A stretch of 64,000 nt of DNA from an uncultured Candidatus Saccharibacteria bacterium (GCA_964492195.1 CAZBJL010000002.1:25472-89471); one strand, 5' to 3'; shown: positions 1-46,951, counted from the first letter of the stretch. The notes: generated by a model from the sequence alone, not told the origin. Translations and numbers: made by a program.

Positions 1-570
1 GACAGCAAAGGCGCACGACTCGACCCTGAAAAACTTGTCTATAAATGGAAGCAAGATGACACGGTGAATGGGGCACTTTCAGGATTTGGTAAAAAAACCT
101 TCAAAATTACGCCATCCATCCTTCCTAAACCAATCGATATTGAAGTTGAAGTGTCTTCTTCCGACAATTCCTACCACGCTGTGTCTTCAATCAGCATTCC
201 AAACACGAATCCACAAGTAATTTTTTATGAAAATAAACCACTCTATGGAATTGATTTTGCTCACGCATTAAATAATTCTGCTTTTGAAATTACAGAAAAC
301 GAAGCGCGCATCACCGCAGTTCCATTCTTTTTCTCAAATCAACAAAATCAATTTAATTTACTTTCGTACAACTGGACGCTTAACAGCAACAAGGTAGACC
401 AAGAGGGGAATGAGGTTATTTTGAGGAAGCCGGAAAATGGAACGAGCGGCCAGTCATCGATCAATCTCAATGTTAAAAACTTGGAGAGGTTCATGCAGGC
501 AGCAAGTGCCAGCTTTACTGCAAAATTTAACAATCAAGCCTCAACGCAAAATAGCCAAACCATTTTCTAA
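1..570 (+). CDS. hypothetical protein, 3' portion (ORF open from window start)
   Basis: Frame of the 64..570 ORF has no stop back to position 1; N/S/T-rich, no recognised motif. Confidence 0.35.
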   Translation, partial: DSKGARLDPEKLVYKWKQDDTVNGALSGFGKKTFKITPSILPKPIDIEVEVSSSDNSYHAVSSISIPNTNPQVIFYENKPLYGIDFAHALNNSAFEITENEARITAVPFFFSNQQNQFNLLSYNWTLNSNKVDQEGNEVILRKPENGTSGQSSINLNVKNLERFMQAASASFTAKFNNQASTQNSQTIF

Positions 571-22392: not shown

Positions 22393-22473
22393 TTACTAAA
22401 TTTTTAATAGTAGTTTTTACCTCGTGTCGTCACGGATAATTTCCTCGCCGACGCCCTGGATTTTTCTTGCTTG

Positions 22474-22546
22474 TCCGCCCAGCAGGATTCGAACCTGCGA
22501 CCAAGTGCTTAAAAGGCACCTGCTCTACCAACTGAGCTATAGGCGG
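22474..22546 (-). tRNA. tRNA-Lys (anticodon TTT)
   Basis: Hand-folded cloverleaf: acceptor CCGCCTA/TGGGCGG, D arm GCTCAGTTGGTAGAGC, anticodon loop CTTTTAA, T arm GCAGGTTCGAATCCTGC. Confidence 0.75.
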
Positions 22547-22580
22547 ATATTTTGTGGTTTTGTGCGCAATTCCTCCTGTA

Positions 22581-22605
22581 ACTACCAAAACAGCTATAGG
22601 CGGAT
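22581..22605 (-). pseudogene. partial tRNA copy (5' acceptor + D-arm-like fragment)
   Basis: aactaccaaaacagctataggcggat matches 21/24 nt to the tRNA-Lys 5' third located 35 nt away; no T arm follows. Confidence 0.4.
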
Positions 22606-22687
22606 TGTTCATGTCTACACCTTGTAGACGCTCCGAAAATATAACGGAATAAAGGCGAAAAGTAAAACGCTACTCACTGCGGTCGAT

Positions 22688-23092
22688 TTACAACGGCAAA
22701 TCAATTGCGAGCGAACCTGCTCCGAGGAAAAGGAGAGAAAGTCCGATTACTGTTACCAAAACAGCAAGCCAAAGTTCCTGAAAGGGAATTGTGGTGCCGT
22801 TCGTGCGTTTTTTAAACCATTCGACCCACACAAAAAGGAGAGCGAGAATGCCTGCGACTTGGGTAAAAAGACCAACAAATAAAAGTACGCCGATTATAAT
22901 CTGAATTTTTGCGAGAATGGCAGCGACGGTGTACGTGCCGAGTTTTTTATTTACCCAGAGCGCATTCCATCCCATGCTGTCTTCTTTGTGACGGCGGATG
23001 CCCTGCAAAACAAAAAAACTACCGAGCGCTATTCGTAAAACGAAAGGGGCGATGAGGGAATAGGTGAATAAATCTGGAAAAATTGAAAGCAT
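22688..23092 (-). CDS. DoxX-family membrane protein
   Basis: 134 aa, four TM helices, DoxX-like N-terminus (LIAPFVLRIALGSFFVLQG). Confidence 0.55.
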   Translation of the reverse strand: MLSIFPDLFTYSLIAPFVLRIALGSFFVLQGIRRHKEDSMGWNALWVNKKLGTYTVAAILAKIQIIIGVLLFVGLFTQVAGILALLFVWVEWFKKRTNGTTIPFQELWLAVLVTVIGLSLLFLGAGSLAIDLPL

Positions 23093-28226: not shown

Positions 28227-28241
28227 ATATGCCCTCGGTAG
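28227..28241 (-). repeat. 14/15-nt copy of tRNA-Arg 3' end (atgccctcggtaggc)
   Basis: Matches atgccctcggcagga at the 3' end of tRNA-Arg 55 nt away; intervening segment holds two short palindromes. Confidence 0.4.
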
Positions 28242-28297
28242 GCCGCGAGTACGCGGTCGACCCTTACAGGGTCAGTACCCATGTCTCTCACAATCTA

Positions 28298-28369: not shown

Positions 28370-28429
28370 GATAAAAACTACACACGAATGAACTTCGACA
28401 ATGTACTACAAAAGACGCCCCTAATCCAA

Positions 28430-44287: not shown

Positions 44288-44359
44288 GTCCTCGTAGCTC
44301 AACGGATAGAGCAGTGCTCTTCTAAGGCATTGATGTAGGTTCGATTCCTACCGAGGGCA
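44288..44359 (+). tRNA. tRNA-Arg (anticodon TCT)
   Basis: Hand-folded: acceptor GTCCTCG/CGAGGGC, D arm GCTCAACGGATAGAGC, anticodon loop CTTCTAA (stem has two G-U pairs), T arm GTAGGTTCGATTCCTAC. Confidence 0.65.
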
Positions 44360-44365
44360 GAGAAT

Positions 44366-45157
44366 TTGCGTATAAATTGTTATGAGATGGAATTAGACGG
44401 CCCTATTTTAGACAAAATTAAAATCTCTTTTTCAGATAACGTGGATTTTTCGGAGTATCCATTTTCTCTGGACATCGTTAGAAATTTGAAAGATATCGTT
44501 TTTTCGTCACAAGTTACTTTTTTTATTGGTGAAAACGGAACGGGTAAATCAACCATTTTGGAAGCAATAGCGAGTAAGTCGGGATTTGGCAGAGAAGGAG
44601 GAAGTAAGAACATAAATTTTAACACCGCAGATAATTCCTTTTATTCCGAAATTCAAAAGTTGTCGGATTGCATGACGTTGTCCTGGAGGAAGAAAACAAA
44701 AGACGGGTATTTTTTTAGAGCAGAAAGTTTTTTTAATCTCGCAAATCACATCGATCATCTTGAGAAAGAAGGAGGTCAGCGCGCCGGGGTCGCATATTCT
44801 CCCTATGGTGGGAAGTCGTTACATAAACAATCTCACGGCGAGAGTTTTTTCTCTTTTTTCAAAAATAGGTTAGGTGGCGGAGGGTTTTATATTCTTGATG
44901 AACCAGAAGCAGCTCTTTCTCCGCAACGTCAACTTGCTCTACTGATCATAATAAATGATTTGTGTAAAAATCCTGAAACACAATTTCTTATAGCTACTCA
45001 TTCTCCGATATTGCTTGCGTTTCCGAATTCAACTATTTATTCATGTGATGGAAGTGCATTAGAGAAAATCGACTATAAAAAAACTGATCATTACGAAATA
45101 ACCAAAGGGTTTCTCAATAATCCGGAGCAATACTTAAAACGTTTATTGCGGGATTAG
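44366..45157 (+). CDS. AAA/ABC-type ATPase (AAA_21-like), orphan
   Basis: Walker A GENGTGKSTIL, Walker B FYILDEPEAALS, H-loop LIATHSP; 263 aa; no nuclease partner in cis. Confidence 0.6.
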   Translation: MRINCYEMELDGPILDKIKISFSDNVDFSEYPFSLDIVRNLKDIVFSSQVTFFIGENGTGKSTILEAIASKSGFGREGGSKNINFNTADNSFYSEIQKLSDCMTLSWRKKTKDGYFFRAESFFNLANHIDHLEKEGGQRAGVAYSPYGGKSLHKQSHGESFFSFFKNRLGGGGFYILDEPEAALSPQRQLALLIIINDLCKNPETQFLIATHSPILLAFPNSTIYSCDGSALEKIDYKKTDHYEITKGFLNNPEQYLKRLLRD

Positions 45158-45164
45158 AGTATTT

Positions 45165-45206
45165 CAGGATAATTAAAACAACCAAACTTTAACGTTTGGT
45201 TGTTTT
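45165..45206. repeat. perfect 17-bp-arm palindrome
   Basis: aattaaaacaaccaaac-tttaac-gtttggttgttttaatt between the ATPase gene and tRNA-Val. Confidence 0.45.
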
Positions 45207-45213
45207 AATTAAT

Positions 45214-45286
45214 GTGCGGGCTGAGGGACTTGAACCCCCGACCTTCTCAGTGTAAATGAGTTGCTCTACCAACTGAGCTAAGCCCG
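45214..45286 (-). tRNA. tRNA-Val (anticodon TAC)
   Basis: Hand-folded: acceptor GCGGGCT/AGCCCGC, D arm GCTCAGTTGGTAGAGC, anticodon loop TTTACAC, T arm GGGGGTTCAAGTCCCTC. Confidence 0.7.
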
Positions 45287-45339
45287 CATGACGTACCTTC
45301 GATTTTCAAGAAAGCTGATTACCACTGTCTAGTTCAACG

Positions 45340-45367
45340 ACCTACCAAGACAGCTAAGCCCACATTC
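45340..45367 (-). pseudogene. partial tRNA-Val-like copy (5' acceptor + D-arm-like)
   Basis: cctaccaagacagctaagcccacat versus tRNA-Val ctaccaactgagctaagcccgcat; shares ctaccaaRacagcta core with the tRNA-Lys-adjacent fragment. Confidence 0.35.
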
Positions 45368-45453
45368 TTTTAGTCCGCATTGTGTTGCGGTCCTGTGAGA
45401 ATACTAGACAAAGCCGATTTTTTCAACTGGAGCAGGCGTGCTAGTATCAAAAA

Positions 45454-46173
45454 ATGAAAATCCTGGTTCTCTATGAAGACGACAATTACATAATTTTCAA
45501 CAAACCGGCTGGATTGGTCGTGCATGCTGACGGACGAACAACTGAACCCACGCTTGTGGATTGGCTTATGGAAAATCGCCCAGAAATGAAAGATGTAGGC
45601 GAACCAATACTCCTTAAAACAGGGGAGACAATCGTGCGTCCTGGCATTGTTCACCGTCTCGACAAAGATACCTCTGGTGCAATCGTTGTTGCAAAAAATC
45701 CTGCTGCGTTTGCTGACCTCAAAAAGAAATTCCAAGACAGAGAAGTCGAAAAAAAATATCACGCATTTGTGTACGGAAATGTAAAAGAAGACGATGGAAT
45801 TATTGATCGACCAATCGGCCGGAGCAAAAGCGACTTCCGAATGTGGTCTGCCCAGCGTGGCGCCCGTGGCGAAATGAGGGAAGCGATCACTCATTACAAA
45901 GTGATTACTCGGAGCGAACAGGCAGCACTTGTAGAAATTGAATTAAAAACTGGCCGAACACATCAGATCCGTGTCCATTTTAAGGCAATTCATCATCCAG
46001 TCGTTGCAGATACTCTGTACGCACCAAACCAAGCTCCACTTTTTGGCTTTGAACGTCAGGCGCTCCATGCGTTTTCGATCTCTTTTACAGGAATTGATGG
46101 TAAAAAAATCTCGGCAGAGGCTCCGTACCCGACGGACTTTAAAAAGGCTGTAAAGCTCATTCAAAACGACTAA
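45454..46173 (+). CDS. RluA-family pseudouridine synthase
   Basis: Catalytic motif HRLDKDTSGAIVVAKN and downstream R.HQIRVH. Confidence 0.8.
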   Translation: MKILVLYEDDNYIIFNKPAGLVVHADGRTTEPTLVDWLMENRPEMKDVGEPILLKTGETIVRPGIVHRLDKDTSGAIVVAKNPAAFADLKKKFQDREVEKKYHAFVYGNVKEDDGIIDRPIGRSKSDFRMWSAQRGARGEMREAITHYKVITRSEQAALVEIELKTGRTHQIRVHFKAIHHPVVADTLYAPNQAPLFGFERQALHAFSISFTGIDGKKISAEAPYPTDFKKAVKLIQND

Positions 46174-46215
46174 GATTTGCCCTCAAGTGGCTATCATGTT
46201 ACATTATTGACCTAT

Positions 46216-46638
46216 ATGAATCCGACGGAAATCAAATTTTCAACAGTCAATATGGCCGAGCGAAAGAAGCTCGGTATTCGTTCTGGAGACACCGTGAAGG
46301 TCTGGCAGAAAATCCAGGAGAAAGACAAGACTCGCGTTCAGGCTTTTGACGGCCTTGTTCTTGCGGTAAAGCACGGTCTTGAAGCTGGTTCTACTTTCAC
46401 TGTTCGTAAAGTTGCGAGCGGTGTTGGTGTTGAGAAAATTTTTCCTCTCTATTCTCCTATGATCGACAAGATCGAAATCGTAAAACGTTCAAAAGTTCGC
46501 CGTGCAAAGCTCTACCACGTTCGTGACAAAGCCGCTAAAGAAGTTCGCCGCCAAATGCGCCATACTCGCGCAGAAAAGGGTGGTGATGTTTCTGCTGAAG
46601 AAGCTCCTGTTGAGAAAACAGAAGTCGAAGCAAAATAA
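46216..46638 (+). CDS. rplS: 50S ribosomal protein L19 with C-terminal basic/acidic extension
   Basis: GDTVKVWQKIQEKDKTRVQAFDGLVLAVKHGLEAGSTFTVRKVASGVGVEKIFPLYSP matches L19. Confidence 0.85.
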   Translation: MNPTEIKFSTVNMAERKKLGIRSGDTVKVWQKIQEKDKTRVQAFDGLVLAVKHGLEAGSTFTVRKVASGVGVEKIFPLYSPMIDKIEIVKRSKVRRAKLYHVRDKAAKEVRRQMRHTRAEKGGDVSAEEAPVEKTEVEAK

Positions 46639-46702
46639 GTAAATTAGGCGAGGTCTCTGCCTTGCTTGTGTAAGCTCTCGTTTTTACATATCATTTGTCT
46701 AC

Positions 46703-46785
46703 GCGCAGGTGGCGAAATTGGTAGACGCACTACCTTGAGGTGGTAACGCCCATCGGGCATGGAGGTTCAAGTCCTCTCCTGCGCA
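46703..46785 (+). tRNA. tRNA-Leu (anticodon GAG)
   Basis: 83 nt, acceptor GCGCAGG/CCTGCGC, anticodon loop TTGAGGT, long variable arm, T arm GGAGGTTCAAGTCCTCT. Confidence 0.75.
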
Positions 46786-46797
46786 CTGGTTTTTTAT

Positions 46798-46869
46798 GGT
46801 GGCTATAGTTTAGTGGTAAAACCCAAGTTTGTGGAACTTGAGTCGAGGGTTCGATTCCCTCTAGTCACC
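46798..46869 (+). tRNA. tRNA-His (anticodon GTG) with encoded G-1
   Basis: G-1 + GTGGCTA acceptor pairing TAGTCAC with C73 discriminator; anticodon stem CAAGT/ACTTG loop TTGTGGA; T arm GAGGGTTCGATTCCCTC. Confidence 0.8.
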
Positions 46870-46951
46870 CTAGTTGGGATTTTCTTAAAATAGCTTTATT
46901 TGGTAAGGGCTTTTTAGTTCTAGCCGCTTCATATACAAGATTGATTTATTA

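Follow-up and report, generated by a model that had tools for sequence, protein, structure and literature searches.

Altered copies of the tRNA 5' end form an apparently undescribed leader repeat in Paceibacteria

A 64,000-nucleotide (nt) stretch of DNA filed under an uncultured Candidatus Saccharibacteria bacterium (GCA_964492195.1 CAZBJL010000002.1:25472-89471; the window) carries, upstream of its tRNA-Lys(UUU) and tRNA-Val(UAC) genes, a 24-nt leader unit which copies the 5' end of the adjoining tRNA and is altered in the same short core at both places. The window is cellular DNA of a genome of the Paceibacteria (Parcubacteria), members of the Candidate Phyla Radiation (CPR), and its two units belong to a widespread Paceibacteria tRNA-leader repeat which is apparently undescribed; no account of such leader repeats in bacteria was found in the literature searched. 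That this is a conserved, transcribed leader repeat of local origin is, in our judgement, very probable, and with rather less assurance we hold that selection for some function acts on its core. The best overall explanation, put forward with moderate confidence, is a leader module that derives from the 5' end of the tRNA, is single-stranded and is under selection; no single specific function proposed below is better than unlikely.

Leader units of the window

The features of the two loci, in window coordinates, are:
22474..22546, minus strand: tRNA-Lys(UUU), complete by ARAGORN and Rfam (74 bits), CCA not encoded, D-arm TAGCTCAGTTGGTAGAGC
22547..22581, minus strand: Lys spacer, 35 nt, A-rich, with TAT right before tRNA +1
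22582..22605, minus strand: Lys leader unit, composed of AT, CCGCCTA, TA, GCT, GTT and TTGGTAG, equal to tRNA -2..+22 with C13A14G15 replaced by GTT
22582-22596, minus strand: conserved core TAGCTGTTTTGGTAG of the Lys unit
22638..22666, minus strand: sigma-70-like promoter TTTACT-17-TATATT, 5' of the Lys unit, the -10 ending about 33 nt before unit +1
45215..45287, minus strand: tRNA-Val(UAC), complete by ARAGORN and Rfam, D-arm the same as in tRNA-Lys
45288..45341, minus strand: Val spacer, 54 nt, beginning GTCGTTG like its orthologue at locus L005
45296-45325, minus strand: possible decayed second Val unit, AGCTTTCTTG against AGCTGTCTTG, shuffle p about 0.04
45342..45365, minus strand: Val leader unit, composed of AT, GTGGGCT, TA, GCT, GTC and TTGGTAG, equal to tRNA -2..+22 with C13A14G15 replaced by GTC
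45398..45426, minus strand: promoter TTGAAA-17-TATTCT, 5' of the Val unit

A preliminary description of the window had reported partial tRNA copies upstream of tRNA-Lys, at a distance of 35 nt, and of tRNA-Val, and had judged the two fragments to be more alike than random decay predicts. The repeat finder recovered both as 24-nt direct repeats, 22525-22548 against 22582-22605 for Lys (21/24 identical) and 45266-45289 against 45342-45365 for Val (20/24 identical), and the Lys spacer (22547..22581) has the length given. Each copy spans tRNA positions -2..+22 and contains the leader AT, the acceptor 5' strand, positions 8-12 (TAGCT) and positions 16-22 (TTGGTAG). The sole clustered difference between the copies and their tRNAs lies at C13-A14-G15; this triplet has become GTT or GTC in the two units, and the same replacement recurs across lineages and tRNAs. 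The Val unit has one extra acceptor mismatch, C2 to T, with which wobble pairing to G71 is still possible. Similarity between copy and tRNA ends exactly at G22, and is followed by TTAC in the Lys unit and GTCG in the Val unit, both of which agree with a D-T-A/C-W junction conserved in 100 related units.

The 15-mer shared by the fragments, CTACCAARACAGCTA, occurs three times in the window with at most two mismatches, versus 0.13 occurrences expected, and three or more were seen in 0/100 shuffles. When 250 nt upstream of each tRNA were searched for the best match to its first 22 nt, 19 positions agreed for Lys and 18 for Val, the other tRNAs reaching 10-14/22. The Val fragment is identical in L001, an independent assembly of the same organism (Logan SRR12487045). 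No second unit was detectable in the Lys spacer (22547..22581), and the 34-nt stretches between promoter and unit in the window showed no similarity to decayed units. Searched against Rfam 15, the leader units matched no family at gathering or E-value thresholds, only tRNAs scoring.

A simple promoter scan found promoter-like sites ending 3-45 nt before the first unit in 23/95 loci (7.9 expected), nine of them ending 7-10 nt before unit +1, and such sites within the last unit in 1/95 (1.0 expected). The units thus appear to lie in the transcribed 5' leader and not to be promoters themselves. In the unit-less relatives L002, L003, L004, L008 and L014 the same promoter, of the form TTGAAA-N17-TAGTATTsT, stands directly before tRNA-Val, so that the window fragments occupy the part of the leader where the tRNA would otherwise begin. 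At several tRNAs of the clade (window 44288-44359 and 46703-46786; L004, L005 and L178) the -10 hexamer was seen only 6-10 nt before +1; judging by this distance, they are probably transcribed with almost no leader, which may bear on the usefulness of a leader-adding duplication.

Recurrence in relatives and at other tRNAs

The preliminary description had proposed a search for the motif at other tRNAs and in relatives, and a comparison of synteny. The motif was found at orthologous tRNA-Val genes and at seven tRNA identities. Through the RluA-type gene, with no use of the motif, 70 loci were retrieved, about 58 of which carry tRNA-Val(tac). The gene order tRNA-Arg(tct), tRNA-Val(tac), rluA, rplS, tRNA-Leu(gag), tRNA-His is widely conserved in Paceibacteria (window 44288-46870; L002-L064). 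Among the approximately 58 loci, the altered core TAGCTGTYTTGGTAG is present upstream of tRNA-Val in the window, L005, L010, L029 and L055, the RluA proteins of the latter four being 54-65% identical to that of the window. A single unit stands 34 nt before tRNA-Val in L029, and there are two in L005; L010 has an array of four, head to tail and each 35-36 nt long, and L055 one of six to seven, 34-39 nt in length (by Tandem Repeats Finder, TRF, 6.6 copies with a 39-nt period).

Two further features of this cluster were noted. The orientation of tRNA-Val and tRNA-Arg flips repeatedly between genomes (L002-L064 compared with the window), which points to frequent small inversions around these genes. 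Long pseudo-tRNA copies at L053, L059, L051 and L026 look different from the units, CAG being intact in the first three; at L026:640-810(+) a pseudo-tRNA-Arg(UCU) lying upstream is preserved as far as position 52, carries in its T-loop the conserved core of the 3' element described in the last section, and has its end overlapping a TATAAT which lies 8 nt before the functional tRNA-Arg(UCU).

Metagenomes were scanned with the pattern TAGCTGTYTTGGTRG, a gap of 17-47 nt, then TAGCTNNNTTGGT, for which we estimate a chance expectation of about 1 or less; the gap limit corresponds to roughly 10-40 nt between unit and tRNA +1, so that larger inserts are invisible in these loci. At least 120 stretches were obtained, and among the matches listed the motif stands 12-54 nt upstream of a complete tRNA on the same strand in about 104. 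These comprise 36 tRNA-Thr (GGU 19, CGU 10, UGU 7), 30 tRNA-Val (GAC 17, UAC 12, CAC 1), 19 tRNA-Phe, 13 tRNA-Lys (UUU 8, CUU 5), 3 tRNA-Ala(UGC), 2 tRNA-Ile(UAU) and 2 tRNA-Met, and without exception the copy has the acceptor part of the tRNA that it adjoins. Most of the checked stretches with no called tRNA contain an intron-bearing tRNA-Thr overlooked by ARAGORN: in L094, L125 and L170 the uncalled tRNA-Thr(GGU) has a group I intron-like insert of at least about 200 nt after the anticodon, and leader units stand at the usual distance before the interrupted gene. Head-to-tail arrays are common, with periods of 34-54 nt and up to ten copies, the array of L104 having 10.3 copies of 38 nt at 98% identity (TRF), and a tRNA follows the array in all cases.

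The synteny comparison also gave a positive result at tRNA-Lys. In L174, L098, L138 and L168 a tRNA-Lys(ttt) with units lies next to a SpoU methylase gene (47-56% amino acid identity to that of the window), and a DoxX-like protein is also encoded in L174 and L098; owing to these shared neighbours the Lys unit is considered to occupy the orthologous locus in distant relatives. The segment GCTGTTTT is kept where the D-loop of the tRNA differs, as in tRNA-Thr and tRNA-Asp of L173 and in L152 and L183. At some tRNAs with other D-arms (Arg, Glu, Leu) plain copies ending near position 20 were found.

In 100 distinct units the acceptor copy matched the tRNA at 9/9 positions in 58% and at seven or more in 87%. 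Positions 13-15 are dominated by GTY. Beyond G22, position +23 is G, A or T, with C the rarest (3%); at +24 T predominates (79%), at +25 A (70%) followed by C (23%), and +26 holds A or T. Spacers are A/U-rich, their lengths peaking at 15-18 nt with a minimum of 12, CAG and ACC are modestly enriched in spacers, and T-A-T precedes unit and tRNA alike. No stable fold is predicted for the units, the mean z-score against shuffled sequences being -0.19, and hence no signature of a structured leader of the riboswitch or attenuator kind.

Several local structures were considered and discarded. A hairpin between GCTGTYTT and the spacer is visible by eye in both window units; over 100 units the longest stem of positions 10-17 with the spacer averaged 4.98 versus 4.97 in shuffles, and fold z-scores lay about 0. 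A shifted-register helix of positions 8-13 with 20-25 is contradicted by +23, where the completing base C is the rarest. A small open reading frame through the unit (GCT GTY TTG GTA, coding A-V-L-V with Y at the wobble position) is incompatible with array periods of 34, 35, 37, 38, 40 and 41 nt, which are not multiples of three.

Origin, possible function and alternative explanations

At 10% of loci or more, the sequence that precedes the first unit has a homologue in the 3' part of the spacer, extending over 24 nt in L080 and 17 nt in L128; L106, L124, L139 and L183 are further cases. This indicates that the unit originated in a local duplication which took in the leader and tRNA positions 1-22. 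Its left boundary lies anywhere from 0 to about 24 nt before +1, its right boundary and the junction being fixed. The suggestion in the preliminary description that the fragments are decayed tandem tRNA duplicates is therefore sustained as regards local duplication, for which these loci provide the evidence, and fails as regards random decay, the copy never passing position 22 and the replacement at 13-15 being recurrent. For the same reasons a decayed duplicate of the whole tRNA was rejected, as the likeness breaks off at G22 and the differences are grouped at 13-15 instead of being scattered. Duplication between TAG microhomologies, with the junction coming from a -10 element, was likewise ruled out, since units with long spacers share the junction and the last T of the -10 is missing.

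Comparisons of related loci indicate what is retained. Between L138 and L187 the coding flanks are 69-72% identical, and a 151-nt block of two units and the tRNA is 97% identical in a different, rearranged context. In five more pairs the spacers are 81-94% identical, the 80-nt flanks being at the background for unrelated sequence. The window and L005 agree at 21/22 positions of core plus junction (TAGCTGTYTTGGTAGGTCGTTG), the remaining spacer being unalignable. In L005 unit 1 is decayed and unit 2 intact, and in the window unit 1 is intact and unit 2 (45296-45325) possibly decayed, so each lineage kept one good unit. The acceptor copies seem less well kept than the core.

In Paceibacteria, then, one to ten head-to-tail units of 34-54 nt are often found between a sigma-70-type promoter and the +1 of tRNAs with the TAGCTCAGTTGGTAGAGC D-arm. 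Each consists, in order, of tRNA positions -2..12, G/A-T/A-Y (mostly GTY) in place of C13-A14-G15, positions 16-22 (TTGGTAG), D-T-A/C-W where the D-stem 3' strand would be, and an A/U-rich spacer ending in the T-A-T context of the tRNA. We propose the following course of events: units would arise by local duplication of leader and tRNA 1-22, their number would expand and contract by slippage, and after transcription in the leader they would be removed by the RNase P cut at tRNA +1. Standard tRNA structure predicts that all four D-stem pairs are lost through the changes at 13 and 23-25, and that U8 and C48 are deprived of their conserved tertiary partners by those at 14 and 15; with the D-stem and the A14/G15 contacts abolished in this way, the copy could not build a tRNA. 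The altered core would be the part under selection: single-stranded in the nascent pre-tRNA, it would be bound by a trans-acting factor, for which an RNA chaperone or processing factor is a candidate. The core and junction, which the tRNAs all share, are single-stranded and G/U-rich and most likely a factor-binding site on the nascent leader, and the core heptamer GTCTTGG/GTTTTGG resembles the optimum of CspB, GTCTTTG/T (PMC1904285), in six of seven bases.

The acceptor copy would mainly be a relic which can still pair with the 3' acceptor strand of the tRNA, its sole conceivable partner. In thermodynamic ensembles the leader copy can form a full acceptor helix with that strand, and as this helix forms readily, RNase P could trim the leader at unit boundaries, one unit at a time. 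Selection for such pairing was not supported, pair-preserving acceptor mismatches amounting to 20/50 versus 15 expected (p = 0.085, not significant). A bolder and rather unlikely proposal is that Paceibacteria encode RNAs made of tRNA pieces beside many of their tRNAs, the leader units and the 3' element together being a tRNA-linked small-RNA system shaped by the enzymes of tRNA maturation and endowed with a function of its own. Units would then be freed one by one, with the tRNA 3' acceptor strand guiding RNase P to their boundaries, and the system might, for instance, bring in a processing factor or an RNA chaperone, or else titrate a tRNA-binding enzyme or nuclease.

The main rival, which we regard as possible and on balance unlikely, is a neutral tRNA-leader minisatellite, generated by chance partial duplication, slippage and gene conversion with the tRNA 5' end, in which the repeat is inert and selection acts only against copies that disturb tRNA folding. 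It accounts for the near-identical units of arrays and the GTCGGGATATAT micro-duplications in L182, for the decay of distal units, for the patchy distribution among relatives with only degenerate copies in some lineages, and for the way in which the acceptor part tracks the adjoining tRNA, as concerted evolution predicts. It also has an analogue in plastids, the trnF pseudogene arrays (PMC3786074). On the other hand, slippage with the tRNA cannot maintain GTY and D-T-A-W, which are shared by seven identities and by genomes with 54-65% RluA identity, and spacers with no tRNA counterpart are conserved where the flanks are randomised. Moreover, loss of a unit between perfect repeats of 12-14 nt lying 38 nt apart should be easy and irreversible, so that long persistence needs either repeated origin or selection.

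The plastid trnF(GAA) arrays are the closest parallel. In Solanaceae and Brassicaceae the promoter is separated from the functional gene by one to seven tandem pseudogene copies measuring 32-73 bp (PMC3786074; Koch et al. 2005 cited there). They resemble the present units in being head-to-tail partial copies 5' of a functional tRNA, after or between sigma-70-type promoter motifs, variable in number and produced by local duplication. The window itself has a single unit at tRNA-Lys and one plus a possible decayed one at tRNA-Val. The plastid copies comprise mostly anticodon, T and D domains, usually with no acceptor strands, concern one tRNA and are used as non-functional markers; the Paceibacteria units, in contrast, always comprise the acceptor 5' strand and the 5' part of the D-arm to G22, with the same triplet and junction at seven identities in many bacterial lineages.

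Several observations weigh against the leader-module explanation. Distal units of arrays are decayed at many positions, as a neutral satellite predicts, and GAC, AAC and ATT replace GTY in some array members. Units are present at only 6/21 further tRNAs of the same D-arm class on unit-bearing contigs; the closer relatives L002-L004 have none, and L017, L019 and L063 have degenerate copies only, as expected of a neutral satellite. The plastid arrays are regarded as non-functional (PMC3786074). The mismatch count for acceptor pairing given above is likewise unfavourable, and calculation lends no support to a D-arm disrupted so as to prevent misfolding, as restoring CAG and AGC leaves both the predicted misfolding and the pairing of the leader copy with the 3' strand the same (in silico, with no tertiary structure modelled). 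The metagenome set was chosen with the core motif, so conservation of the core is circular there, and the motif-independent support consists of five genomes at one locus together with the spacer comparisons.

Partial tRNA copies are routinely read as integration scars, and integration or excision scars (attL-like) of elements targeting the tRNA 5' half were among the possibilities raised in the preliminary description. A partial copy beside a full tRNA is the classic signature of an integrated element (PMC9897764), and these genomes do contain other partial tRNA copies, for instance 3'-end copies downstream of tRNAs. Attachment (att) sites of this kind share with the units the direct repeat beside an intact gene (Williams 2002 and Reiter 1989, in PMC9897764); they differ in bracketing an integrase element of 9-121 kb and in being single, usually exact 3' copies. 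The units are 5' copies, 12-54 nt away, often in arrays and systematically altered, and no element lies between copy and tRNA in any of more than 120 loci; because the gap of the scan was limited, the RluA-selected loci and the window are the independent evidence on this point. In addition, housekeeping genes surround the copies and an integrase is absent for about 5 kb around, tandem identical units are unlike scars, and one element family would need seven different acceptor strands. All eight core matches in viral contigs are apparently coding and none lies beside a tRNA, so no attP-like copy was seen there. Scars are thus largely refuted and in our view very improbable. Known prokaryotic tRNA fragments have been attributed to element integration or to CRISPR spacers (PMC9897764), and neither account fits the units. 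Among the readings offered in the preliminary description, the conserved tRNA-like leader or processing element is the best supported, in so far as a conserved leader element is concerned, since the motif, whose absence from other tRNAs and from relatives was named there as the refutation, clearly recurs at both.

An improbable alternative is that the 18-20 bp core TAGCTGTYTTGGTAG with D-T-A-W is a DNA operator bound by a regulator, the arrays giving cooperative control of a subset of tRNAs. The core is independent of tRNA identity, apparently better kept than the acceptor copy (Ala orthologues; units 2-4 of L055), situated just downstream of the promoter, and contains a direct repeat of TAGST with 12-nt spacing. 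It lacks dyad symmetry, however, array periods of 34-54 bp are unrelated to the helical repeat, no candidate regulator gene is linked in the window, and an RNA or duplication origin would account just as well for the strict same-strand orientation. A duplicated or secondary promoter in each unit, with TTGGTA as -35 or TAG-(n)-TAW as -10, is scarcely credible. The junction does resemble the TAG-TATTsT of clade promoters, the spacer lengths peak at 15-18 nt and one promoter-like match lies in the window Val spacer; against this, the essential last T of a -10 hexamer lacks conservation (19% T at +29), a -35 at the right distance is lacking, and the count of sites in the last unit (1/95) equals the shuffled expectation.

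BoxA was rejected since the core does not match it; the only 16S leader available, that of L143, has a BoxA-like TGACCTTTGAAATC, and the core occurs there only before tRNAs. BoxA (NusB/NusE) and cold-shock-protein sites are similar to the units in being conserved unstructured motifs between a promoter and a structured RNA gene. Type III antitoxins (ToxI-like) are tandem repeats of 34-45 nt which are cut into unit RNAs. Their period is similar, the transcript is non-coding and unit-length processing of the leader repeat is conceivable, yet the units differ in being tRNA-derived with no predicted pseudoknot or fold. A type III toxin-antitoxin array was excluded because in all cases a tRNA, not a toxin endoribonuclease gene, follows; in the window the next gene is convergent. 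The tRF-5 class of RNAs consists of 22-nt 5' fragments derived from tRNAs. The unit has the length of these first 22 nt and nearly the same sequence, and differs as a separate, genome-encoded leader segment with fixed substitutions. Forster and Altman reportedly described, in 1990, external guide sequences and model substrates of RNase P, in which a strand pairing with the 3' acceptor creates an RNase P helix; the acceptor copy of the unit, with the T-A-T before it, could by analogy do so in cis, a purely conceptual parallel. Pairing between leader and 3' end affects RNase P (PMC9433436).

The repeat merits attention as a tRNA-copied leader segment with the same altered core at seven identities throughout a large uncultivated clade. 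Leaders of bacterial pre-tRNAs are normally short and unconserved, and in genomes as tiny as these non-functional DNA is not expected to persist long. A functional core would point to an unknown step in CPR tRNA transcription or maturation, or else to leader-derived small RNAs of a new class. Were the repeat neutral, the arrays would be a bacterial counterpart of the plastid trnF pseudogene arrays and a useful marker, and would serve as a warning for tRNA annotation and genomic-island prediction that a partial tRNA copy is not always an att site. The motif is easily searched, so both readings are directly testable.

The 3' element, neighbouring genes and other observations

A structured element of 105-155 nt is located downstream of many Paceibacteria tRNAs (33/441 examined), for example at L016:1519-1649(-), L026:2941-3047(+), L050:3726-3830(+), L183:3330-3439(+) and about 30 other loci. 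Its first part is a copied acceptor 5' strand to which the T-stem 5' strand is fused; there follow the invariant GAAAGNCGGAG, a variable hairpin, the invariant CGGGGTCG, another hairpin, GTGACC, and finally a copy of the T-stem 3' strand, acceptor 3' strand and discriminator of the tRNA. The whole amounts to an acceptor/T-arm "minihelix" mimic in which a conserved insertion replaces the T-loop. RNAalifold on 13 instances gave 28 pairs, 20 with compensatory changes, and the outer helix covaries with tRNA identity. The element had no match in Rfam. Searched with a covariance model (R1) and E values as high as 10, the window yielded no full copy; a degraded remnant, AGGGCGTCGGCGAGGAAATTATCCGTGAC, lies just after tRNA-Lys at 22429-22457(-).

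The closest relatives of the RluA-type synthase of the window are in metagenome-assembled genomes labelled Zambryskiibacteria, Taylorbacteria, Campbellbacteria and Paceibacteria. Both tRNAs are surrounded by housekeeping genes, namely those for DNA polymerase I (PolA), HolA, Fpg, a Mur ligase, a SpoU methylase, a DoxX-like membrane protein, the RluA-type synthase, ribosomal protein L19 and PilM; neither an integrase nor any other mobile-element gene was found within about 5 kb of either tRNA. The Lys promoter directly follows the stop of the DoxX-like gene (22688-23092; Pfam). Within that gene a 12-mer of the Lys unit, GCTGTTTTGGTA, is repeated exactly at 22754-22765, where it codes L-A-V-L-V-T; it sits 171 nt from the unit, and ACAGTAA comes next, just as it does in the Lys units of L135 and L138. 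Chance in T-rich hydrophobic codons is the probable reason for the recurrence.

The tRNA at 46703-46786(+) was given no definite anticodon by ARAGORN ("tg") and scores 49 bits with the Rfam tRNA model; its orthologues are tRNA-Leu(GAG). Upstream of tRNA-Arg(GCG), at 28387-28399(-), a possible decayed 5' copy was seen by eye, GTCGAAGTTCATT against GTCCTCGTAGTTCAAT in the tRNA with a 3-nt gap, directly following the promoter-like TAGTACATT. About 55 nt downstream of the same tRNA, at 28230-28242(-), lies a 13-nt copy of a tRNA-Arg 3' end, CCTACCGAGGGCA, which equals the end of tRNA-Arg(UCU) at 44347-44359. Since GGGTCG and a short hairpin stand before it, this copy may represent the 3' element in a compact or decayed version.

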